IMG/VR virus record: IMGVR_UViG_3300027734_003164
Location: 64,001-128,000 of that record
Strand: one strand, 5' to 3'
Source: a virus
Taxonomy: Duplodnaviria; Caudoviricetes
Length of the DNA stretch: 64,000 bases
How positions within the stretch are numbered: position 1 is the stretch's first letter; every line of letters starts with the position of its first letter. Position numbers and translations under genes: made by a program. Below are positions 3,907 through 41,648 of the stretch, one piece after another. The notes under the pieces are model-generated. The model was not told the origin of the DNA and ran no database searches. It saw nothing but the letters and a program-made list of their open reading frames with translations.

Positions 3907-4746
3907 TTAGTAGTTCATAATGAGTAATTCTTCACCCATATTTTGTTTTTCTCCTTTCTTGGCGGCGGCAGCTTTTGCAAACTCTTTTTTAACCCAATTG
4001 TATTGGTCTTCAGGAAACCACTGATGTAATAAGTCAAAATCGTAATATGATAATGAAAATTTACCCTGAACATTATGTAAAACATTTGCCAATCTTTCGT
4101 GGTCTTGTCTATCAAAATCATGATTAGAGTAGTAATTCTCAGTTTTCCAATAAGGTGGGTCCAAATAGATGTAAGTGGATGGTGAGTCGTATTTATTAAT
4201 AACGTCAGCAAAATCCATATTTTCTACATCTGTAATCTTTAAAAAATGGTCTACCCAATCAGGTTTTGATAACTTATCTCTAAAGGTAAGATATTTTGAT
4301 TTATACTTCCCTTTAAGGTCAATAAAGTTAGATGTTTCAGGTTTTGACCCACTAAATACTTGTGTTAGAATATAAACGTATTTGGCTGCAACCTCGTAAT
4401 CGCCAGGTTCTACGCTGAAACCTTCATTAAAAACTTCAGCCTGAAAGCTTACAAATTGATTTCTATAAATCTCAGGAGTGATGTCCACACCTTGTTTTTG
4501 ACAATCAATAGAGTTAATTGCTCGTAACAATTCAGTTGGGTTTTGAACACACTTGAATAGATTATAGTTCAGTGGATTAAAATCATTATAAACCACTTTT
4601 TTAAGATTCGGGAACTGTTTTAGGTCCATATTATAGAAACACCAAAACATTCCTCCAAAAGTCTCTAAATAGACCTCCATATTTTTATCGTAGAAAGGGA
4701 CTATCCACTTTCCAATTTTACTCTTACCGCCAATGTATGAAACCAA
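3907..4746 (-). CDS. DNA adenine methyltransferase, Dam/D12 class
   Basis: N-terminal SYIGGKSK, motif I ETFGG, YNDFNP, catalytic YLDPPY, FSLSY near the C-terminus. Confidence 0.9.
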   Translation of the reverse strand: MVSYIGGKSKIGKWIVPFYDKNMEVYLETFGGMFWCFYNMDLKQFPNLKKVVYNDFNPLNYNLFKCVQNPTELLRAINSIDCQKQGVDITPEIYRNQFVSFQAEVFNEGFSVEPGDYEVAAKYVYILTQVFSGSKPETSNFIDLKGKYKSKYLTFRDKLSKPDWVDHFLKITDVENMDFADVINKYDSPSTYIYLDPPYWKTENYYSNHDFDRQDHERLANVLHNVQGKFSLSYYDFDLLHQWFPEDQYNWVKKEFAKAAAAKKGEKQNMGEELLIMNY

Positions 4747-4751
4747 AACTA

Positions 4752-5435
4752 TTATTTTTTTCTATATTTATTTTTACTACTAATTATATTAATAACCTCA
4801 TCAAAGATAATCTTTTTTCTATTTAAAAACAAGTCCGTTTCAGAATAAAACCCATTGTAAATCTTTTCAATATCTGACATACCTGCCCACCCAACAAATT
4901 TATATTCTTTATTTTTTGGTCCGTAAAGTTTATTAACATTAACTCCAAATAATTTACCCATCCTTTCATTTAAAGTATTTATGAAATTAACTGACCCACC
5001 AACAATTCTCAAGTCCCCTCGTTTAGAATTATCTTTTTTGTCTTCATTTATTCTAATACACCCATCACCATCAAAATATCCTCGTAAAAAATGTCTTTCA
5101 AGATTTTCATCAATTTTAGGGTAACTTATTGTATAAGTTTTGTTTGGGTGTAATCCAATCTTTTTTAAGTCATTTATCATTTTCTTACTTGAAAACCCGA
5201 TTTCAGAAATTTCTCTATGATTACTTCTCCATATTTCAACTTCACTATCTAATAAGGATATAAACTTTTTTAATATATCTTCATCTTTATTATGAATTTT
5301 AATATTTAATTTATATCTATATTCTTTTGGATTGTCAATTAAACATCCATCAGCATAGATAAAACCAAGAAAATAAGCCTTATCTGGAGTATCAATCGTC
5401 TTAAAATAATCTTCATTAAATTTTTTTCTTATCAT
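4752..5435 (-). CDS. free-standing LAGLIDADG homing endonuclease
   Basis: Two LAGLIDADG-like helices: FLGFIYADGC and FLRGYFDGDGCI. Confidence 0.9.
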   Translation of the reverse strand: MIRKKFNEDYFKTIDTPDKAYFLGFIYADGCLIDNPKEYRYKLNIKIHNKDEDILKKFISLLDSEVEIWRSNHREISEIGFSSKKMINDLKKIGLHPNKTYTISYPKIDENLERHFLRGYFDGDGCIRINEDKKDNSKRGDLRIVGGSVNFINTLNERMGKLFGVNVNKLYGPKNKEYKFVGWAGMSDIEKIYNGFYSETDLFLNRKKIIFDEVINIISSKNKYRKK

Positions 5436-5580
5436 AATATTCCTTTACTAAATCTTGAATGAATTTAGATATACTAATATTTTCATTTTTCATTTTATCA
5501 AACAAAAATCTATCTATACTAATACCGTATTTAACTTTTTTGTTTTCTTCATTTTTTTTTGGTCTTCCAAGTTTACTCAT
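5416..5580 (-). CDS. small ribbon-helix-helix-like DNA-binding protein (54 aa, not in ORF track)
   Basis: Hand translation MSKLGRPKKNEENKKVKYGISIDRFLFDKMKNENISISKFIQDLVKEYYDKKKI; GRP hook, alternating beta strand, then two helices; overlaps LAGLIDADG start. Confidence 0.65.
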   Translation of the reverse strand: MSKLGRPKKNEENKKVKYGISIDRFLFDKMKNENISISKFIQDLVKEYYDKKKI

Positions 5581-5674
5581 ATATTATAAATATCAATATT
5601 ATAATAAAAGTGCGTTAATAAATAAAAATAATTTTGATATTTATTTTCAAATGATTAATACATAAATTATAGGT

Positions 5675-15587: not shown

Positions 15588-16403
15588 TCATAAATATTCA
15601 AATAAATCTGAACATTCGTTTCGTAGTTTACGAAGAGCCTTTTCTTTGATTTGACGAACTCTTTCTTTTGTAAGACCAAAATCTGTACCAATATCTTCCA
15701 AAGTACGAGGTGTGCCGGTAATACCATAGTAATCCTCAATAATTACTTTTTCACGCTCATCCAATACTGACATAATTTCCATCATTTTAAGTTTGAGAGT
15801 GTCCTTTGTTGAAAACATTTCATCAGGTGAAACGATATTTTCATTTTTTATTACATCAATTAATGTGTCTCCGTCTTCATTGATGTGCATATCCAAATCA
15901 ACAATTTTTGGAAGTTGTGCAAACTTTGCGGATAATTCCCCGTTAGTTTTTTCCAAAACCTTTTTTTCTTTTTGCATATCTTGTACAACATTAACCGGAA
16001 GTCTGATTGTTCTTGAATTATCATTTAGTGATTGAAGGATTGATTGTTTAATCCACCAAACAGCATAAGAAATAAAACGGTTGTTTTTGGTCCAATCAAA
16101 ATTCTTAATGGCCTTTAATAGTCCATAGTTTCCTTCAGCAATTAAGTCTGATAGGTCAATACCTTGATTTTGATATTGTTTTGCCACGGTAATAACAAAA
16201 CGTAAGTTACCCTCTAAAAGTTCTTTATAGATTAACTCTTTTTCTCTTTCAGTACAGTTTTCATCTGTAATCATTTTTGAAAGGATTTTTTCCCTTTCAG
16301 GTGTCATTACTTTTAACTTTCGAATGTCTTTTAAATAAAGTTGAATTTCGTCTTGGTTAATCGGGTTTGAAGATTTAATTTCCTCGGTTTTCTCTCTTTC
16401 CAT
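15588..16403 (-). CDS. RNA polymerase sigma-70 factor, short RpoD-like (regions 1.2-4, no 1.1)
   Basis: DEIQLYLKDI, NLRFVITVAKQY, DLIAEGNYGLLKA..FD, RFISYAVWWIKQSI, RTIRLP, TLEDIG..FGLTKERVRQIKEKALRKLR. Confidence 0.93.
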   Translation of the reverse strand: MEREKTEEIKSSNPINQDEIQLYLKDIRKLKVMTPEREKILSKMITDENCTEREKELIYKELLEGNLRFVITVAKQYQNQGIDLSDLIAEGNYGLLKAIKNFDWTKNNRFISYAVWWIKQSILQSLNDNSRTIRLPVNVVQDMQKEKKVLEKTNGELSAKFAQLPKIVDLDMHINEDGDTLIDVIKNENIVSPDEMFSTKDTLKLKMMEIMSVLDEREKVIIEDYYGITGTPRTLEDIGTDFGLTKERVRQIKEKALRKLRNECSDLFEYL

Positions 16404-16965
16404 AATTGTCTAATATTTGTTTTTCTTCCTCTGTTAATGACTCTATACCTTTTTCTGAAATCTTATCCAAAATTTGGTCTACAGTCGGTTTCTCTTTTTT
16501 TTCTTCTTTTAAAAATGGATTTTTAATCATGTCTTCCGTTATTGGAAATATGAACTCCATTATATTGTTCATTCTTTTCTTTTTTTCATCTGATAATTCA
16601 TCTTTTTGTACTCCTTTTGTTTTTGTTTCTTTTTTTACTCCATCTATATTTAAAAAATCTCTCTTCAATTTTCGTTCCATTTTGATGTCCACGTTTTCTG
16701 TTGCCTCCATCAAAAAATATTGTTCGACAGTTCCGTCTAAACACATATCAACGTATTCTTTCAGTTCCATAAAAGGTTCTTTGGTTCTAAAGTGTAAAAC
16801 TATGCCAAACTCACCATAATTAAACTTCAGGTATTCACTAGAAACCACCGTTATTAGCTGATACGAAATGTCCTCAATAAACTTTTCCATTTCTGTGAAA
16901 TCACCGAAAATAAAAAGCATATATCTTTTGTCTTGTGATTTCATTTCTGTTTTCTTCTTTCTCAT
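16375..16965 (-). CDS. hypothetical protein with C-terminal DUF6576-like helical motif
   Basis: VDQILDKISEKGIESLTEEEKQIL; true start may be M at 16944, which has TATTTAT 20 nt upstream. Confidence 0.65.
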   Translation of the reverse strand: MRKKKTEMKSQDKRYMLFIFGDFTEMEKFIEDISYQLITVVSSEYLKFNYGEFGIVLHFRTKEPFMELKEYVDMCLDGTVEQYFLMEATENVDIKMERKLKRDFLNIDGVKKETKTKGVQKDELSDEKKKRMNNIMEFIFPITEDMIKNPFLKEEKKEKPTVDQILDKISEKGIESLTEEEKQILDNYGKRENRGN

Positions 16966-16974
16966 AAATATCTT

Positions 16975-17523
16975 TTAAACTCGTTTTGAATATGATACAA
17001 TTTGGTAAAAATCCTTTTTTCCTTCACAATATTCTAACACCAAAGTTAATAATGTTTTGAACATGTAAGCGTCTTTTGTTTGTTTTTCGCAGATGGTAAA
17101 TAACTCAATAAAACTCACAAGGGTGTCCATCTTATAATACCCATGATTGTCTAAAACATCGAACTCATATAAATGTTTTTTGTAAAAATTAAGTTCGTAA
17201 CTATTTCTTTCTTCTGTGTTGTTGAATGGTTCCGTTGTTTCATACAAAGATAATACTTTTTTTACAAACTTACCAACAATCACTTTATTATATTCACATT
17301 TTACTAAAAGGTCAGTAATCCAGTGCGTATGACTTGGTGTTCTTAAACGTTTGTTAGTTTCTTTGTATTTTACAATAAAGTCAAGTTCAGGATTTTCACC
17401 TCTTGAACCTTGGTATGTCGCAACCATAGTTCCGTCTACCATTGTATACGTAGAAATTGGTGAAAAGGTTACACCTTTTTTAGTATAAGTTAGGGTCATA
17501 ATTTTATTTTTTTTATAAATCAA
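16975..17523 (-). CDS. hypothetical protein coupled to the EcoRI-like gene
   Basis: 11-nt overlap with the endonuclease stop; FIVKYKETNKRLRTPSHTHWITDLLVK motif. Confidence 0.75.
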   Translation of the reverse strand: MIYKKNKIMTLTYTKKGVTFSPISTYTMVDGTMVATYQGSRGENPELDFIVKYKETNKRLRTPSHTHWITDLLVKCEYNKVIVGKFVKKVLSLYETTEPFNNTEERNSYELNFYKKHLYEFDVLDNHGYYKMDTLVSFIELFTICEKQTKDAYMFKTLLTLVLEYCEGKKDFYQIVSYSKRV

Positions 17524-18331
17524 TACTTAATATTTCAAGGGAAGTTTTTGAAACTTCTAACATAATATCCAACATTTCAATATTGTTCCACTTATCACCA
17601 TTTCCTTTTGTGTAAATAGATGCGCTTTGTAAAACACGTAATACCGTACCATTTTTAGTTATGGATTTGTTTTTACACAAATTAGTATTTATTGGCATTC
17701 CATAATTTAAAGCAGTCAACCTATCCAATCTGTTTAATGTACCAGAGTTTGATGATAGAGTTACGTCTCTACCATCAGGTCTTGTTATGGAAATTGTTTC
17801 TGTCAAAAAATTTGAACCTTCTAAAAACAAAATATATGGAAAATGTGATTCAGAAATCATTAAGTTACGAGTTTCAATTATATTTTTTGGAGCTCTTTCA
17901 ATTGCGTTTCCAGCCACCATTAAGTCTTGATTGGATAATTTACCAACTAAAACCCCCTTTTTTATATTTTCAATATCCTTTCCTTGAAACTTTGCTTCCG
18001 TAATTAAAACTATCCTCCAATCACCATTTTTATCTTTTACTTCAATTATTCCACCGTCTGGTTTAATACATGACTTAGACACAAAAAGGGTTTGACCTAA
18101 TTCGGAGTCCATTTTTTTTAAAGAGTCATTTATTTCTTTTTTAGATACGCTTTTTCTATATCTAAAAGTAAGATGGGGGTATTCCTCTTTTATTTTTTTT
18201 AATACGTGAGTTGTAGTATTATCAACACTCGATTCGTGGATTTTTGCATCATCTCCAAAAATACCATCAACACCTTGAGTCTTTTTATGTTGGTCCGTTA
18301 ATCTTTTTGATTGTTTATTTTTGATGGTCAT
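17513..18331 (-). CDS. type II restriction endonuclease, EcoRI family
   Basis: Colinear with EcoRI as recalled: QGVDGIFGD, IKPDGG (D91), TEAK (E111/K113), GNAIER (N141/E144/R145), HFPYILFLEGSNF, LNRLDRL (R200/R203), NYGMPIN. Confidence 0.93.
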   Translation of the reverse strand: MTIKNKQSKRLTDQHKKTQGVDGIFGDDAKIHESSVDNTTTHVLKKIKEEYPHLTFRYRKSVSKKEINDSLKKMDSELGQTLFVSKSCIKPDGGIIEVKDKNGDWRIVLITEAKFQGKDIENIKKGVLVGKLSNQDLMVAGNAIERAPKNIIETRNLMISESHFPYILFLEGSNFLTETISITRPDGRDVTLSSNSGTLNRLDRLTALNYGMPINTNLCKNKSITKNGTVLRVLQSASIYTKGNGDKWNNIEMLDIMLEVSKTSLEILSIDL

Positions 18332-18362
18332 ATTTTTATGATTTAAATATATCCTTAGAATA

Positions 18363-18392
18363 CAAATATATAAAAAAGTTAATTACTACAAA
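18363..18392 (-). promoter_or_regulatory. Bacteroidota-type promoter upstream of the EcoRI-like gene
   Basis: -7 TATATTTG (18363-18370) and -33 TTTG (18389-18392), 18-nt spacing. Confidence 0.55.
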
Positions 18393-20758
18393 ACTTTTGA
18401 CACATTATTTTCTTTTTTAATTTTTACAATACTGTCCGACCATTGCGAAACTAAGGGAGAATGTGTTATGACAAAAATCTTGTCAAAATATTCTTTAATT
18501 TTGATGAAAAACTCGGCAACCATTTCTAAATTATCATTACTTATTTTACCAAACACCTCATCGAAGACAATTATGTTGGGCTTAGGGGTACTAGCCACCT
18601 TACTTAGTACTGAACGTAGAGCCAATGAAGCGATTGTTTTTTCATATCCTGAACCTGAAACCATCAATTTTTCAATACCAGTACTATTATCAATCATAAC
18701 AAATTCCACCTCATTTTTATCGTTGATTCTAATCTCCAATTTGAAGTATGAACTATCCTCCATCAATCTTTGAAGTTCTGAATTGATTAGTGGCATCATG
18801 GTCTTCATAATCATTTTTGATATTCCATTTTTACCAAACAACTCCAAGTAAATTTTAAAGTTCTTTTCTTTTTCCTCTTCTTTTTTGATTTGTTCAATTA
18901 GTTTAAGGTTATTTTCAATTTTTTCTTGGTTGTTAGTATTACCCACCTCAAGTGTTGTGATTTCAGATTTCTTTGATGTTTTTTGTGTTTCAAGTTCATC
19001 AAGTCTCATATCCGCTTTAATCAACATCGTTTCAATTTGTTGATTGTCTTTAATCTTATCCTGTATCTCAAAATATCTTTTAAGTTTTGAATTAAAACTT
19101 TCAATTTTCAAATCACAACTTTCAACTGATAATTCGTATTTTTCCTTGATAAGTTTGTTTTTTTCATATTCATCAAACTCTTTTTTAAGTTGTACAAATG
19201 ATTGTTCTTTGTTGGATAAATCATTCATAAGTGTCGTTTTTGTGTTTTTTTGCACAATAAGCCCATCTAATTCTGCAATTTTTGAATTGGTGATTGCGGC
19301 ATTCATTAACTCAATCCCACAATGTTCACATTTAATACCACCTTCAACTGAAGACTTCAATTTGTTAATTGAAGAAATTTCCGTGTCAATTTGAACAATC
19401 TCTTTATAAACACTATTATATTGTTCTTTAACTTCATCATGTTTATCTTCATGATAAAACTCACTTGGTTCGACAACTTTAAGTTCATTTATTTTTGATA
19501 TGAATGTGCTTTTTTCGTAGTTGATTGTGTTGATTTCTTCTTGTGTTTTTTCAGGATTCAATACAGAGATTTCTTGGTCAATATCAGAATGTTTTTTCTT
19601 TAACATATCATCCCGATAATCTTTTCCTTTTTTAATTTTCTCCTCAATATCTTTCAACTCAATTTTAACTTCTTCAATTTTTTTCAAATTAGTAGAAATT
19701 GTATTTTTCAACTCTTCGTTGTTGTCTTTAAGTTGTTGTGAAGAATATACATTTGACATCTTTGATTTTGAAAAATCTCCATATACTTCTTTTGCAACTT
19801 CTTCTTTTCTTTTTAAGAACTCCAATCCCATAAATCTTGACAATACCTGACCACGAGCAGTTGGTTTTGCTTCCAACAATTCTTCAAGGTTTGATGCTGT
19901 TGTAAGAATGGTCATTAAAAAGTCTTCTTTTGTGCCAATAGAAGTTTTAATAAACGCTTCAGTTTCACGTCTTTGTTCACCGGTAAAGTTTTGTAAACTA
20001 CCATCAGATAATTTTTTAAAGAAGTCCAATTCTGTTTTTACGTTCCATTCACCTTTCTTGGACAACTTTCTTTCAATGTTTCTAACAATAATGTAATCTT
20101 CACCATCGATTGATACTTCACCTTTTACATAAACTTTATCTTTATTTGTAAATCGGTTGAATATTTCTTCAGCCTTTGTTGTTTTGGTTGTTTCATTAAA
20201 AAACAAGAACATCAAAAGGTCTACCGATAAAACCGTTTTACCTCCAAAGTTTGGTGGGTCCGATTCGACAACAACAATACCATTAAGTTTTTCAAAATCT
20301 AATCTTTGATTTTCACCATAAGATAAAAAGTTTGAAAACTCAATGTTTTTGATATACCACTTTTTAAATTGTGTGGTTTCTTCGTGTTTTTCTAAAATCT
20401 TATTTTCAACTATTTTATTAATTGAAAGGATTTCATCGGTATGACCTGTAAGACCTTTACCTTCCAAATATTGTCTCATCAGCCCCAACTGGTAGTTCGC
20501 ATCAGTTATATTTACTGACACATCTATCGTTTGAACTTCATCTGTGTTTGTAATTTTAGCCTTTGTTAAAACATTGACGTTGGTAGTGTTATACTTTTTG
20601 GAAAAGTAATGTTTAACACTTTTAATTTTGTCTTGTGTAAAATTTTCAGGCAAATCTTCCCAAACAACTTGTATGGTCGGGTTTATAAACTTTGAAAAAT
20701 CAAGGTCTTTAATCATAATATTGTAATTAAATTTTTTTGGTGGATTAAATAAATCCAT
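18386..20758 (-). CDS. SbcC/Rad50/gp46-like ATPase with ~130-aa N-terminal extension
   Basis: IKNIEFSNFLSYG, Walker A PNFGGKT, coiled coil with CEHC zinc hook, degenerate signature SGSGYE, Walker B IVFDEVFG, ITH. Confidence 0.9.
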   Translation of the reverse strand: MDLFNPPKKFNYNIMIKDLDFSKFINPTIQVVWEDLPENFTQDKIKSVKHYFSKKYNTTNVNVLTKAKITNTDEVQTIDVSVNITDANYQLGLMRQYLEGKGLTGHTDEILSINKIVENKILEKHEETTQFKKWYIKNIEFSNFLSYGENQRLDFEKLNGIVVVESDPPNFGGKTVLSVDLLMFLFFNETTKTTKAEEIFNRFTNKDKVYVKGEVSIDGEDYIIVRNIERKLSKKGEWNVKTELDFFKKLSDGSLQNFTGEQRRETEAFIKTSIGTKEDFLMTILTTASNLEELLEAKPTARGQVLSRFMGLEFLKRKEEVAKEVYGDFSKSKMSNVYSSQQLKDNNEELKNTISTNLKKIEEVKIELKDIEEKIKKGKDYRDDMLKKKHSDIDQEISVLNPEKTQEEINTINYEKSTFISKINELKVVEPSEFYHEDKHDEVKEQYNSVYKEIVQIDTEISSINKLKSSVEGGIKCEHCGIELMNAAITNSKIAELDGLIVQKNTKTTLMNDLSNKEQSFVQLKKEFDEYEKNKLIKEKYELSVESCDLKIESFNSKLKRYFEIQDKIKDNQQIETMLIKADMRLDELETQKTSKKSEITTLEVGNTNNQEKIENNLKLIEQIKKEEEKEKNFKIYLELFGKNGISKMIMKTMMPLINSELQRLMEDSSYFKLEIRINDKNEVEFVMIDNSTGIEKLMVSGSGYEKTIASLALRSVLSKVASTPKPNIIVFDEVFGKISNDNLEMVAEFFIKIKEYFDKIFVITHSPLVSQWSDSIVKIKKENNVSKVL

Positions 20759-23024: not shown

Positions 23025-23804
23025 TTAAATATTAATTAATTTTTCTGTTCCATTTTCTACGTCTTCAAAGGACTTGATTGAAAATTTTAACAGTGGTCTT
23101 GGATTGAACAAATCAACATATTTATATTCTTTAGTTTGAACGTCATAAATACCGTATCCGTGTTTTCCTATACTTTCCCCTACATTCTGCTGAATTGTAG
23201 ACCCAATCATATAACCCTTTCCCGTATTGAATTTAAACTCTTGTCTTTTATGAATATCTCCACATAAGACGGTTTCAAGTCCATCAAACTTTTCAACATC
23301 GTATGCCTCTTCACCAAAGTCAAAACCAAGGTCTGTTTTCATTCCTTGAATTGGTCCGTGAAACAATCCAATTCTTTTACCCTTCGCTTCTGTAATGTCA
23401 GGTGGTATATTTCCCTGTAGTTGCGAATAAACACACCAACTAATGTTTTCATCTTCATATACACCTCTATCTTTGAGGTATAAAATATTTTCATTATGTA
23501 AGGTATTTACAATAGGTGTAATGGAATCTAGCCTGTCTTGATTGTTTAAATTTGTATCATGGTTTCCAAGTATAATAATTGTTTTTGAAATATTAGAACA
23601 TTCAGTCAATAACCATCTAACCATCTCAATAAGTTCAGGTGTCATTTGGTTTTTAGAATGAACTAAGTCTCCAGTGAATACAATCCTATCTGGGTTTAAT
23701 TCTTTCCATTGTTCAATGGCAGTTTCCAAAATTGATTTATACAAATCGTGGTCTTTGAAAAGACGGATGTGTAAGTCAGAAAAATGTATTAACTTTTTAA
23801 TCAT
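23025..23804 (-). CDS. SbcD/Mre11/gp47-like metallophosphoesterase nuclease (short)
   Basis: SDLH, FTGD, LGNHD, LFHG, CGDIH motifs; YMIGSTIQQNVGE. Confidence 0.9.
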   Translation of the reverse strand: MIKKLIHFSDLHIRLFKDHDLYKSILETAIEQWKELNPDRIVFTGDLVHSKNQMTPELIEMVRWLLTECSNISKTIIILGNHDTNLNNQDRLDSITPIVNTLHNENILYLKDRGVYEDENISWCVYSQLQGNIPPDITEAKGKRIGLFHGPIQGMKTDLGFDFGEEAYDVEKFDGLETVLCGDIHKRQEFKFNTGKGYMIGSTIQQNVGESIGKHGYGIYDVQTKEYKYVDLFNPRPLLKFSIKSFEDVENGTEKLINI

Positions 23805-30829: not shown

Positions 30830-32404
30830 TTAAGATAAACCTATTTTTTGTAAAGGCATATACTTTGGTGACCCGTTTACACTTATACCGTTACATGTTG
30901 ATGGGGTTATGGTTACATTTGTTATTGTTACAGTATCTAAAATATAACCTTCAAGTTGACAACCGTTAAATTCTATACTTGGAGTATTAATAAACTGAGT
31001 GATGGTTCCGTTTATAATTCCTCCCGATGAAATACTTGCAGTGTATGTGTTTGTAAATGAACTATAATTTATATTAGATAAATTACAAGAAGGTCTACTT
31101 TGTGAACTAGTAGTAACCACCGAGTTTGTCGGTGTACTTAAAGTTGCATTACCTGATGTTGTTGCGGTTATAGAATTTGTAATAACAGGTACGTTTGTTA
31201 CAAAAGTTTTTCCTGTAAATCCAACGGCAGTATTAATTGTAAAGTTTACTGTTTTTCCTGCTGGTAATGTTGGTGTAACGTTTATTTGATAATACCAAGT
31301 TTTGGTAGTTGTAGTACCAACATTAGTTTGATTTGCCAACGGAGTTAAACTTAAATTAAGTGTATAGTTTGTATAAGAATTTTGTGGTGTAAGTGTTACT
31401 GACTGAGTTGTTACTGTGTTATTAGTATCTTTTATATAAATTGTATAATTGCCGGCAGCCAAACCTAAAAATGTATTTGACATTTGATAATTAACACCAT
31501 TGATAGAATAGGTGTAAGATGGAACTCCTCCATATCCGGTGACATTAATTACACCATTAGATGTGTTAGAACAAGTTGGTTGTGTTGTTGAAACTGATAA
31601 TGTTAATGGTGGTGTTGTACATACACCTGTTGATACAAATACAGTACCTTGATATGTTCCAAGTAAAGACCAATTACCTGTAGGTGGTGTTGTTGGTTGT
31701 AATAAAGCGGGAACACCAGGATTAGTCCATCCACTAACCTCCCATCTTGTATTTCCTGTACTATATAATACCGTATAAGTTGAACTTGTCCAAGACGGGT
31801 AACCATTGATTGTTGAACCGCTAGTTAAAGTAGTTAAATACGTTGTATTAAAAGAAGGTGTATATTCAAAACATAAGTTTTGTGGGTATACAGGTGCTGG
31901 TGTCGGTGGAGGTAAACAATCTGAACAAGTGTCAAATGGTCCTGTAGATATTACCGCAAAATTATTAATATAACTTTGTCCTGTATATAATGTTTGACCG
32001 CTATGGGTCCAACAACCAACTTGACTTGTTAAACTATACACTTTACCATCGACGAATTTTGAAGGTAAATCTGCAACATAATAAACAAAAGTTCCTGAAT
32101 TTTCACAGTCTTCAAATTGTTCCAAATAGAAACTATCATAATCAACCGAACAAGTTGTTTGTCCTGTAAAATCACCATAATAATCTATAACTGTTGCCGT
32201 ATAATTACCAGGTAGTAAATTAGTAAGTAAAGAACCTTGTGCCCCGTTACTCCAATTTATAGTATATGGTGGTGTTCCTCCTGTTACATATAAGGTTATT
32301 AGACCATTAGTTGAATCAGGTGTTGACGCATTAATACTATCACAATCTAAACCTAATGGTAGAAGTGTTATTATATTACAACTATTTCCACTTAATAACC
32401 CCAT
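30830..32404 (-). CDS. SprB-repeat virion/adhesin protein
   Basis: VTGGTPPYTINWSNG...LLPGNYTATVID and GGVPSYTYSING...GLAAGNYTIYIKD. Confidence 0.75.
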   Translation of the reverse strand: MGLLSGNSCNIITLLPLGLDCDSINASTPDSTNGLITLYVTGGTPPYTINWSNGAQGSLLTNLLPGNYTATVIDYYGDFTGQTTCSVDYDSFYLEQFEDCENSGTFVYYVADLPSKFVDGKVYSLTSQVGCWTHSGQTLYTGQSYINNFAVISTGPFDTCSDCLPPPTPAPVYPQNLCFEYTPSFNTTYLTTLTSGSTINGYPSWTSSTYTVLYSTGNTRWEVSGWTNPGVPALLQPTTPPTGNWSLLGTYQGTVFVSTGVCTTPPLTLSVSTTQPTCSNTSNGVINVTGYGGVPSYTYSINGVNYQMSNTFLGLAAGNYTIYIKDTNNTVTTQSVTLTPQNSYTNYTLNLSLTPLANQTNVGTTTTKTWYYQINVTPTLPAGKTVNFTINTAVGFTGKTFVTNVPVITNSITATTSGNATLSTPTNSVVTTSSQSRPSCNLSNINYSSFTNTYTASISSGGIINGTITQFINTPSIEFNGCQLEGYILDTVTITNVTITPSTCNGISVNGSPKYMPLQKIGLS

Positions 32405-39344: not shown

Positions 39345-41648
39345 CTATGTATAACAAGTTACATCGTAGTCTATTGTTAATTCTAAAGTGAAATTAGCGT
39401 CAGCCAGTGGGTCAGTATCACCCTCACAATTTGACTCAATGTGAATTGTATTATCCGTCAAACTTATAGTATAACTACTAATATCAGTAACACCACTTAA
39501 TATTCCTTCTATTGTTGATTGCCAAATTGTGTCTTGTGGAATATCATTCAATGTTGTTGCGGTATAGAATGTTTGAGTAAATGCACTTCCGTTAATATTC
39601 ATTTCAAGTATAAATTCTGCGGTATTTAAACTACATCCCGTATATCCACTTGTAACATCAATATACCCCTCATTTAACATTTCTAAAAATCCACGTTTAG
39701 CCCCAACTGTTGTTGCAAATTCATTTTGACACAATTCAACAACAGAGTATGTTGTTACATTATTTCCTGAACATGTGATTGTAAAATTGTGAATTTGTGA
39801 ACACCCACTACTATCTGTAACTTCAACAGAATACGTACCGGCGGTTAAACCGGATATAGTTGAACCCGTTTGTCCTGACGGAACATTATCTGACCAATCA
39901 TAACTAAATGTTGGTTCTCCGTCGTATATTAATACTTGCGCGGTTCCATTTTGACCACCATAACATTGTGTTGTTGATATTGCACTAATTAAACTACCTC
40001 CCGTTGATATTGTTACTTGTTCATCAATTTGACATCCATCCGCATCAACAACTGTGAGAGTATAACTACCAGCCACTAAATTATTAAAGGTATATGAAGA
40101 TAATGATGTATCTAAAACTGATTGTCCATCACTTAATATATAATCCAAAGGTGATGTATAACCAGTTCCGACTTGGACTTGTAAAACACCATCATTTTGT
40201 GAACATGTTGAACCTGTTGTTGTTGTATTTATTTCAAATTTATCGGTTGATGATAATGTAACAGTTGTTCTGTACTCACAATTTGTTCCTGTTGCAGATA
40301 TTATTAAATCATACGTGTCATTTGTCAACCCTAAAAAGGTGTTGGTTAAACTTTGCGTTGTGTTAGTGTATACTAATCCGTTTGTTTGACCCGATAAAAT
40401 ATAACTATAAAAATTATTTGAACCTTGTAATGAAACAGTTAATGAACCAAGTTGTTGGCTACAATTAGAGTTTGTCACCACTGTATCAACTATGAAAAAT
40501 GAATTTTCAGCATTAATAAACGCACTTAATATTTGTTTACAAAAGTTTGCATCTGTTATTTCTAAATTGTAATTTCCACTTGATAATCCTGATAAGGTTA
40601 ATGTATCACTTAATGTATACCCTACTTGTGATGTACTGGCGGAATAATAATAAGGAACACTACCTCCTGTAATTGTAAATGTAATACTACCGTCCGATGA
40701 AAAACAAGAAGGATTTATAGAAGTGACAATACCAACTCCAAGTGGGTCGGCTTCACCTATAGTATCACTTTTAGTTACTACGCATCCATTTCCGTCCGTT
40801 ACTGTACAACTATAAGTTCCAATTGTTAAACCTGTTATTGTTTGACCCGTTTGACCGTCATTCCAAAGATATGTGTAAGGTGGTGTTCCTGTAAGACCTG
40901 TGATTGAAAGTTTTCCCTGATTAATGACACAAGTAGACGTATTTACTTTCCAAAAACCAAAATCAAAATTTGAAGAGGATGAAATAATTGCGTTAGATGT
41001 TGTTGCGGTTGACAATCCATAATCTACAACTTTAACAAAATAAGTGTCTGCGGATAAATTTGTGAATGTATATGGGAATAAAGTGGTAACTTGTGATTGT
41101 ATAGAACCTCCTGATGTGGATAATATTAAAGTATATGGCGACATTTTAGAGTCGGCACTTACGGTCAGTGTTCCGTTATTATTTCCACATGTGGTTGGTG
41201 TTACGTCAATAATATCGGTATAAAAACAACCTGTTATTATAACATTTATATATAATTCGTTATTTTCAAACCCTTCAGAATCATTCAATCTAAACACATA
41301 GGTGTCGGCGGTTAGTCCTGAAAAGGTTATTGGGCTTGAAGATGTTTTAGCGCTTATTCCACCAGGTTGTATATTATCTATTGTATATGGTGGTATTCCA
41401 CCATATGGTGAAAATGTTACAGAACCTGTTGGGGATGAGCAAGTACCTGTAATTGTAAATGTTAGTCCTAATGGTTGGTCGTCACAAGTTGGTGTACAAG
41501 CGGACATTGTGTTATAAACACCAAATGTTGATGCCGAATACGCACTATCAAAACAAATAGTTTCCCCTAAAGAAACTCCAACTACAAAGTTACCACAACA
41601 ATCATAGTACCTATATACCCCATCCGTTAAACCTGAATAACAAGCCAT
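39345..41648 (-). CDS. multi-SprB-repeat virion protein
   Basis: About 7 repeats such as TGTPPYTYLWNDGQTGQTITGLTIGTYSCTVTDGNGC. Confidence 0.8.
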   Translation of the reverse strand: MACYSGLTDGVYRYYDCCGNFVVGVSLGETICFDSAYSASTFGVYNTMSACTPTCDDQPLGLTFTITGTCSSPTGSVTFSPYGGIPPYTIDNIQPGGISAKTSSSPITFSGLTADTYVFRLNDSEGFENNELYINVIITGCFYTDIIDVTPTTCGNNNGTLTVSADSKMSPYTLILSTSGGSIQSQVTTLFPYTFTNLSADTYFVKVVDYGLSTATTSNAIISSSSNFDFGFWKVNTSTCVINQGKLSITGLTGTPPYTYLWNDGQTGQTITGLTIGTYSCTVTDGNGCVVTKSDTIGEADPLGVGIVTSINPSCFSSDGSITFTITGGSVPYYYSASTSQVGYTLSDTLTLSGLSSGNYNLEITDANFCKQILSAFINAENSFFIVDTVVTNSNCSQQLGSLTVSLQGSNNFYSYILSGQTNGLVYTNTTQSLTNTFLGLTNDTYDLIISATGTNCEYRTTVTLSSTDKFEINTTTTGSTCSQNDGVLQVQVGTGYTSPLDYILSDGQSVLDTSLSSYTFNNLVAGSYTLTVVDADGCQIDEQVTISTGGSLISAISTTQCYGGQNGTAQVLIYDGEPTFSYDWSDNVPSGQTGSTISGLTAGTYSVEVTDSSGCSQIHNFTITCSGNNVTTYSVVELCQNEFATTVGAKRGFLEMLNEGYIDVTSGYTGCSLNTAEFILEMNINGSAFTQTFYTATTLNDIPQDTIWQSTIEGILSGVTDISSYTISLTDNTIHIESNCEGDTDPLADANFTLELTIDYDVTCYT

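Follow-up and report, generated by a model that had tools for sequence, protein, structure and literature searches.

A solitary EcoRI-family restriction endonuclease gene in phage DNA devoid of its predicted recognition site GAATTC

The subject of this study is a stretch of 64,000 nucleotides (positions 64,001 to 128,000 of the IMG/VR virus record IMGVR_UViG_3300027734_003164, Caudoviricetes), hereafter called the window, and a gene in it for a type IIP restriction endonuclease (R) of the EcoRI family, next to which no gene of the M.EcoRI type was found in the available DNA. The protein is an EcoRI-family member with intact catalytic and base-contact residues, its gene evolves under purifying selection, and the solitary occurrence of R is tightly linked to a complete lack of GAATTC in the available DNA. 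We propose, with a probability of roughly 0.6, that R is an active, GAATTC-specific endonuclease that is kept without a cognate methylase and is tolerated since the phage genome is free of the site, a reading that is based on comparative sequence analysis. Self-immunity through site absence is well supported, i.e. the phage tolerates R because its own DNA contains no GAATTC to cut. The first-pass annotation of the window had suggested offensive restriction combined with self-protection by erasure of the site; R is indeed intact and methylase-less, and zero GAATTC tracks the gene in both lineages in which it occurs alone, but the proposal as a whole is only partly supported. The gene is located as follows:

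17513..18331, minus strand: solitary EcoRI-family type IIP restriction endonuclease (R), 272 amino acids (aa), predicted site GAATTC

The R protein matches the Pfam profile EcoRI (PF02963) with an E-value of 4.4e-125 over profile positions 2-254 of 257, and the EcoRI structure PDB 1ckq with an E-value of 1.4e-106 over residues 5-272 at ~65% identity. Residues were compared in an alignment that contained EcoRI, ten close copies from the phage clade and 111 further homologs. The catalytic residues D91/E111/K113 (D92, E112 and K114 in the phage protein) are invariant in the 11 phage-clade proteins and the 111 other homologs, and the same is true for the positions that read GAATTC, namely, Q115, M137, G140, N141, A142, E144, R145, K148, N149, R200 and R203. 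The initial description of an intact EcoRI homolog with equivalents of D91/E111/K113 and N141/E144/R145/R200/R203 is thus borne out by a full-length match in which all of these residues are kept. Given the conservation of the catalytic and of all base-contact residues, R is predicted to be GAATTC-specific, and we regard this call as well-founded. No match was obtained when the region was searched by megablast against 50,697 phage records, and the sole match in a protein search of phage records was a truncated EcoRI together with its methylase in a Helicobacter prophage record.

GAATTC does not occur in the window, although 20.8 copies (standard deviation 4.6) are expected from dinucleotide shuffles and 22.8 from a Markov-2 model, which agrees with the manual scans of the first-pass annotation (zero found, roughly 20 expected). 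Its one-mismatch neighbours are plentiful, as had also been reported; we counted AAATTC 111, TAATTC 87 and CAATTC 58 times, with equally numerous reverse complements, and among the absent non-GATC hexamers GAATTC is the one with the highest expectation. The avoidance is synonymous and affects all three reading frames: in the genes of the window the pair Glu-Phe is never encoded by GAA-TTC (9 expected), NGA-Ile-CNN is found without ATT, though ATT is the commonest Ile codon, and NNG-Asn-TCN never contains AAT. Conserved Glu-Phe pairs of the neighbouring SbcC-like gene are written as GAATTC in phages without R and as GAGTTT, GAATTT or GAGTTC in all R-bearing ones. GAG, a rare Glu codon, accounts for 43-63% of the Glu codons directly before Phe compared with 16-22% overall, but this excess was rejected as an R-specific scar of site erasure, because every member of the phage group, including those without R, exhibits the same bias; its source is either a bias in codon pairs or an old avoidance of GAATTY throughout the group. 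Only the complete loss of GAATTC is therefore specific to R-bearing phages.

The window genome exhibits a broad avoidance of restriction sites. GATC is absent (about 146-184 expected), and CTTAAG (1 versus 15 expected), GATATC (1 versus 15) and GTTAAC (2 versus 24) are nearly so. CTTAAG is scarce in every relative examined. Since several palindromes are avoided, the specificity of the GAATTC signal rests on the comparison with relatives. Close homologs of R (81-96% identical) are located in the same slot, directly after the SbcC-like gene, in contigs from other samples, always without a methylase, and this R-only arrangement recurs in L017-L024. The GAATTC counts of relatives with R alone (R-only), with R and a methylase (R+M) and without R (R-less), pooled per class (from non-redundant DNA in the case of the R-only phages), are:

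R-only phages, two lineages: 107 kb, 0 GAATTC, ~40 expected
Cassette-swapped close relatives: 110 kb, 0 GAATTC, 40 expected
R+M relative (locus): 21.6 kb, 1 GAATTC, 9 expected
R-less sister lineages: 131 kb, 25 GAATTC, 53 expected
Other R-less relatives: 752 kb, 187 GAATTC, 316 expected

The absence of the site from 107 kb lies far outside chance, even against a group background of 0.59 of the expectation; the P values for zero sites in the two R-only lineages are about 1e-15 and 2e-3. Whole records give the same picture, with no GAATTC in 96, 56 and 30 kb of the window clade, three in 35 kb of the R+M relative L073, whose genes occupy the same slot, and 7 in 37 kb, 19 in 74 kb, 16 in 94 kb, 48 in 220 kb and 75 in 304 kb of the outgroups. 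R-less relatives contain about 0.2-0.25 GAATTC per kb, and a lone R is tightly linked to zero GAATTC in the available DNA. In the R-only phages L019-L021 GATC is found at normal frequency and GAATTC is lacking, which shows that the avoidance of the two sites is uncoupled. In the nine classes of one-off star sites the depletion in R-bearing genomes does not exceed that in R-less ones, which argues against a relaxed specificity in vivo. On a side note, GATC is absent from the window, its clade and the sister lineages, and in L019-L021 with their normal GATC the sigma-factor gene is directly followed by a gene for a C5 cytosine methyltransferase (PF00145); it looks as if a host system specific for GATC were countered in one of two ways, by avoidance or by methylation.

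G001, the nearest record, aligns collinearly with the window (~96% identity), and the alignment breaks exactly at the EcoRI open reading frame (ORF). Window positions 17514-18359 correspond to 1.57 kb in G001 (G001:14803-16376), which encode a beta-class N6/N4 methyltransferase and an orphan ORF of 142 aa instead of R. G001 is itself free of GAATTC, but it was discarded as a test of whether R-less relatives are equally depleted: at 4.15% divergence from the window only about 1.4-2.9 new sites are expected after the recent cassette swap (calibrated on other hexamers of the same composition), and its zero count is therefore uninformative.

The search for a partner methylase was negative throughout the window. 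Queries with M.EcoRI of an E. coli plasmid, M.EcoRI of Helicobacter and the G001 methylase retrieved nothing from its 64 kb by tblastn, while M.EcoRI was found next to R on a Staphylococcus plasmid as a positive control, and profile hidden Markov models built from the methylases collected here detected neither an M.EcoRI-type nor a beta-class methylase in it. A check for a cognate M.EcoRI elsewhere, which the first-pass annotation had recommended, likewise yielded none in the 96 kb of G001 and in the complete 304-kb relative G011; the EcoRI_methylase family is also absent in G009 (220 kb), G007 and G003, and among the records searched it was only found in the R+M relative G002, which provides the positive control. 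No close M.EcoRI was found in other viral contigs of the phage group. The 75%-identical M.EcoRI of L111 was set aside, because it is an orphan methylase of an unrelated phage with a G+C content of 45%. In cellular genomes all of the 71 informative loci (those with enough flank among 80 EcoRI-homolog loci) adjoin a gene of the M.EcoRI type.

The earlier statement that no M.EcoRI-like gene lies nearby holds for the whole window, but both it and our profile models had missed a methylase of another class, which was recovered by a motif scan:

3907..4746, minus strand: D12-class (Dam-like) N6-adenine DNA methyltransferase, 279 aa (PF02086, E-value 8e-20)

This enzyme, encoded 13 kb from R, was considered as the cognate partner and rejected. 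It represents a core gene of the phage group (97% identity in G001, 89% in G009 and 85% in G011), and the R-less G009 and G011 harbor it together with 48 and 75 GAATTC sites. Its distribution is independent of R, and it is therefore not the partner of R. The D12-class methyltransferase is kept even in lineages with no GATC at all.

The R gene has been maintained by selection. Pairwise ratios of nonsynonymous to synonymous substitution (dN/dS) among the phage copies range from 0.07 to 0.27 at synonymous divergences (dS) of up to 0.82, which documents purifying selection on R without a methylase. A tree of the SbcC-like protein places the R-only phages in two distant groups, one of which comprises L019-L021. 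Between these two groups the dS of R amounts to 0.5-0.8 compared with 1.7-3.5 for the flanking SbcC-like and sigma-factor genes, and it is exactly at the R gene that the nucleotide identity increases from about 0.72 to 0.82-0.89. The low divergence of R and this confined island of identity show that the cassette has moved laterally between lineages, and the combination of a lone R with a site-free genome thus holds in two genome backgrounds.

The neighborhood of the gene and, in the last two lines, the slot of the nearest relative comprise the following features:

16375..16965, minus strand: DUF6576 gene, downstream boundary of the slot (PF20216, E-value 3.5e-11; conserved synteny)
16975..17523, minus strand: ORF following R, 174/182 aa, no Pfam match
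18363..18392, minus strand: Bacteroidota-type promoter motif with a -33 element TTTG (18392-18389), a spacer of 18 nucleotides and a -7 element TATATTTG (18370-18363)
18386..20758, minus strand: SbcC/Rad50-like (T4 gp46-like) gene, 790 aa, upstream boundary of the slot (Pfam SbcC_Walker_B, E-value 3.9e-5, below the curated cut-off)
23025..23804, minus strand: metallophosphoesterase (SbcD/Mre11/gp47-like; Pfam Metallophos, E-value 6.7e-12), likely the nuclease partner of the SbcC-like protein
L001:5005-5949, minus strand: beta-class N6/N4 methyltransferase of the nearest relative, 314 aa, in the slot of G001
L001:5999-6427, minus strand: 142-aa slot ORF of the nearest relative without Pfam or PDB match, a candidate restriction endonuclease

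The SbcC-like protein is 72-97% identical in 288 viral contigs of IMG/VR, and the slot directly after its gene is a hot spot for restriction-modification (R-M) cassettes. A comparison of 80 relatives reveals two states of the interval from the SbcC-like to the DUF6576 gene, an empty one of about 30-120 bp and one with an insert, and every insert tested other than that of the window holds a methyltransferase of the D12, beta or gamma class, mostly together with a partner ORF; the cassette of the window, R alone, is the exception among the filled slots tested. Slot cassettes with methyltransferases are exemplified by L101:4675-6996 (plus strand), L025, L035, L039, L043, L067, L069, L087, L088 and L091. 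One slot cassette contains an IceA/NlaIII-like nuclease between two beta-class methyltransferases and another one a gamma-class methylase of 784 aa with a specificity domain; most of the partner ORFs are without an assigned family. The ORF that follows R (16975-17523) was considered as a partner or inhibitor of the endonuclease and rejected, being absent in the R-only phages L019-L021 and present in the R-less L033 and L025-L028. Within the window clade, signs of mosaic recombination around the slot are seen in the comparison with L022, whose identity of 95-98% to the window falls to 74-83% where the SbcC-like gene ends and R starts (18300-18700) and in the sigma-factor gene (15600-16400).

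The promoter motif is located 31 nucleotides upstream of the ATG of R at 18331, with its -33 element just before the stop codon of the SbcC-like gene. Full motifs of the Bacteroidota type occur five times on the coding strand of the window and once on the other, compared with 0.87 in shuffles, and the motif upstream of R is kept in L017, L022 and L007. The host-type promoter that had been noted here is thus real as a motif, but of the Bacteroidota and not of the sigma-70 type; a scan for E. coli-type promoters was rejected as evidence (17 sites versus 24.7 in shuffles). The position and conservation of the motif suggest a promoter function and an early transcription of R by the host polymerase.

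The phage group includes a complete genome of 304 kb (G011), and the completeness of 32% assigned to G001, a fragment of 95.9 kb, likewise implies a phage size of about 300 kb. A dozen studies published between 2017 and 2025 contributed freshwater metagenome runs that contain the stretch; no RNA run with it is listed among the public runs. Genes for NrdA, NrdB, a DnaB-like helicase, a 5'-3' exonuclease, a primase, the SbcCD-like pair, a sigma factor and SprB-repeat proteins are located in the window. The latter are encoded by two large genes:

30830-32404, minus strand: SprB-repeat protein, probably a tail fibre
39345-41648, minus strand: SprB-repeat protein, probably a tail fibre

SprB repeats are a motif of the gliding-motility adhesins of Bacteroidota. 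Together with the -33/-7 promoter motif and the closest cellular homologs of R, among which Bacteroidota are dominant, they suggest that the host probably belongs to this phylum. A scan of the window for tRNAs as further host clues found none.

Several observations weigh against our proposal and are best discussed together with the alternative explanations that they favor. The genomes might have been purged from outside, by hosts with EcoRI-type systems, in which case R would be a roleless leftover of a mobile R-M cassette that has lost its methylase. Bacteroidota, to which the host probably belongs, commonly contain EcoRI-family systems, and the phage genomes strongly avoid other palindromes besides GAATTC (GATC, CTTAAG, GATATC and GTTAAC). 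R-less relatives are already at about 0.5-0.6 of the expected GAATTC; seen together with the other avoided palindromes, some of the depletion may therefore be of earlier origin or due to the host. The comparison with R-less relatives, in which equal depletion had been named as the refuting outcome, came out mostly in favor of the initial interpretation, since the more distant ones contain about half of the expected sites and the site-free G001 and L025-L028 are uninformative. Strong depletion is also found in L088/L089, with L089 being site-free or nearly so, and could represent the trace of a lost gene or outside pressure. Orthodox type II systems drive the avoidance of their own site, and this avoidance can outlast the system (PMC4687349); the site-free G001 and L025-L028 match such a trace of a lost system, with outside pressure as a further possibility. 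We nevertheless consider a purely host-driven origin unlikely. GAATTC is totally absent only in clades in which R is present or was present until very recently, and the apparent counterexample G001 carries no weight for the reason given above. Moreover, a useless gene would not exhibit a dN/dS of 0.07-0.27 over a dS of up to 0.8, nor would its retention after lateral transfer into a second lineage be expected.

Two further explanations concern the enzyme and its missing partner. The window covers about a fifth of its ~300-kb genome, so that a GAATTC-protecting methylase may be encoded separately in the remaining roughly 240 kb, and separated R and M genes are documented (PMC3488263); alternatively, the D12-class adenine methylase at 3907-4746 might provide the protection. 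A separated R-M system appears improbable to us: with zero GAATTC sites there is nothing to methylate, the family search that succeeded in the R+M relative gave no match in the window, in the 96 kb of G001 or in the 304-kb and 220-kb relatives, and no other viral contig of the group contains a close M.EcoRI. The D12-class enzyme is a core protein also of R-less relatives that keep 48-75 GAATTC, and if it were protective, the R-bearing lineages would not need to purge the site. It is also conceivable that R is inactive, attenuated or altered in its specificity, e.g. a DNA binder or an enzyme with relaxed "star" activity, and that the missing site is a coincidence of ancestry. EcoRI positions 114 (H in EcoRI), 138 (A in EcoRI) and 192 are F, V and S in the phage-clade R (phage residues 115, 139 and 193), and these are reportedly the sites of the promiscuous EcoRI mutants of Heitman and Model; a comparison of EcoRI chains revealed a difference between PDB 2oxv and 1ckq at position 138. 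The exchange H147P (phage residue 148) is unique to the phage clade, with H in all 111 other homologs. An impaired or altered enzyme is nonetheless highly improbable, because none of the catalytic or base-contact residues varies, F114 and V138 are natural variants that are present in 5 and 21 of the 111 other homologs, the nine star-site classes are not extra-depleted in R-bearing genomes, and the exact and exclusive loss of GAATTC argues for a GAATTC-specific toxicity.

Under our preferred explanation of an active R in a site-free genome, the history of the system would have started with the entry of a complete EcoRI-type R+M cassette into the hot spot downstream of the SbcC-like gene, an arrangement that a living relative keeps. 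Self-toxicity would then have driven the loss of the remaining GAATTC sites via synonymous changes, and the methylase would have been lost, since it was dispensable in a genome that was already site-free. The order of these events is itself inferred; the loss of the sites may have preceded and permitted the loss of the methylase, or it may be partly host-driven. Likewise, we infer the enzymatic activity, the early expression and the target identity of R. Its own host-type promoter makes it likely that R is produced early in infection, and the enzyme would cut unmethylated DNA with GAATTC, be it the chromosome of the host, the DNA of rival phages in the same cell or both. The neighboring SbcCD-like exonuclease and the nucleotide-salvage genes (NrdAB) could then process the ends that are produced. 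R can probably cut foreign DNA without harming the phage, and it would be retained since it cuts GAATTC-bearing DNA other than that of its own phage; an offensive use against the host chromosome or rival phages is plausible.

A more specific version, which we consider doubtful, is that the lone R serves as a phage-phage weapon that acts like a gene drive. During mixed infections it would cut the genomes of R-less relatives, and repair on the template of the site-free R-bearing genome, aided by the adjacent SbcCD-like recombination nuclease, would copy the cassette together with the site-free alleles into the rival. If true, this scenario would account for the lateral transfer that brought R to one and the same slot in distant lineages, the sharp island of identity, the clade-wide loss of the site and the milder depletion of GAATTC across the phage group.

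Among known systems, the type IIP systems EcoRI and RsrI (R.EcoRI PF02963, M.EcoRI PF13651) resemble the phage R in its ~65% full-length identity and in the D-E-K and recognition residues. In contrast to them, the phage R lacks a cognate methylase, resides in a jumbo phage of lytic type rather than on a plasmid or chromosome, and has a carrier that is free of the site. An orthodox type II R-M system is defined by a cognate methyltransferase that is encoded together with R, and the window contains none. Virus nucleases that degrade host DNA are known from T4 (endonucleases II and IV encoded by denA and denB, and the gp46/47 exonuclease) and from the R-M systems of chloroviruses, with self-protection by base modification (hydroxymethylcytosine, hmC) in T4 and by methylation in chloroviruses. 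The proposed logic is similar in that a virus endonuclease would cut non-self DNA, whose products would pass to exonucleases and nucleotide salvage; R adjoins the gp46/47-like SbcCD genes, and NrdAB as well as a 5'-3' exonuclease are encoded in the window. It is this context, together with the host-type promoter motif, that supports a putative degradation of host DNA during infection. The phage described here differs from T4 and the chloroviruses in that its protection would result from sequence composition alone and its enzyme family is unrelated to theirs.

A close parallel for a lone enzyme is PacI of Pseudomonas alcaligenes, which is cited in PMC3488263 as a solitary restriction endonuclease of a host whose genome lacks the recognition site. 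Both enzymes are without a methylase, and in both cases self-protection corresponds to an absent site; GAATTC is missing from the 64-kb window and from all R-only loci, where about 40 copies are expected. PacI recognizes an AT-only site of 8 bp in a GC-rich bacterium, which is rare by composition alone. In the phage, by contrast, the 6-bp site GAATTC has been removed, though it is expected about 100 times in an AT-rich genome of ~300 kb, the enzyme is carried by a virus, and the process can be traced through an R+M intermediate and R-less relatives. Twelve solitary restriction endonuclease genes in 831 phages are reported in the accessible part of the survey PMC4176335; like the phage R they have no linked methylase, and that part of the survey ties neither a function nor site statistics to them. 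The phage R differs from these genes in being linked to total site loss, purifying selection and lateral spread. Our literature search found no description of a phage-borne EcoRI without a methylase together with site purging.

Restriction enzymes are normally lethal without their methylase, and the cellular EcoRI family follows this rule in 71 of 71 informative loci. The phages appear to document a natural route out of methylase dependence whose stages are still alive, namely, R+M with few sites, R alone with none, and R lost from genomes that are nevertheless site-free. Viruses may also be able to turn a classical bacterial defence enzyme to their own purposes, with an immunity that lies in the composition and not in the modification of their DNA. 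The relationship of R to the best-studied restriction enzyme and the recurrence of the phage in freshwater metagenomes make the case directly testable, and the slot after the SbcC-like gene is a source of uncharacterised methylase-nuclease pairs.

A minor observation concerns the region next to the D12-class methyltransferase gene. A gene for a LAGLIDADG homing endonuclease is located at 4752-5435 on the minus strand, in a segment (4775-5631) that is missing from the otherwise collinear G001; it is a mobile insertion next to the methyltransferase gene.

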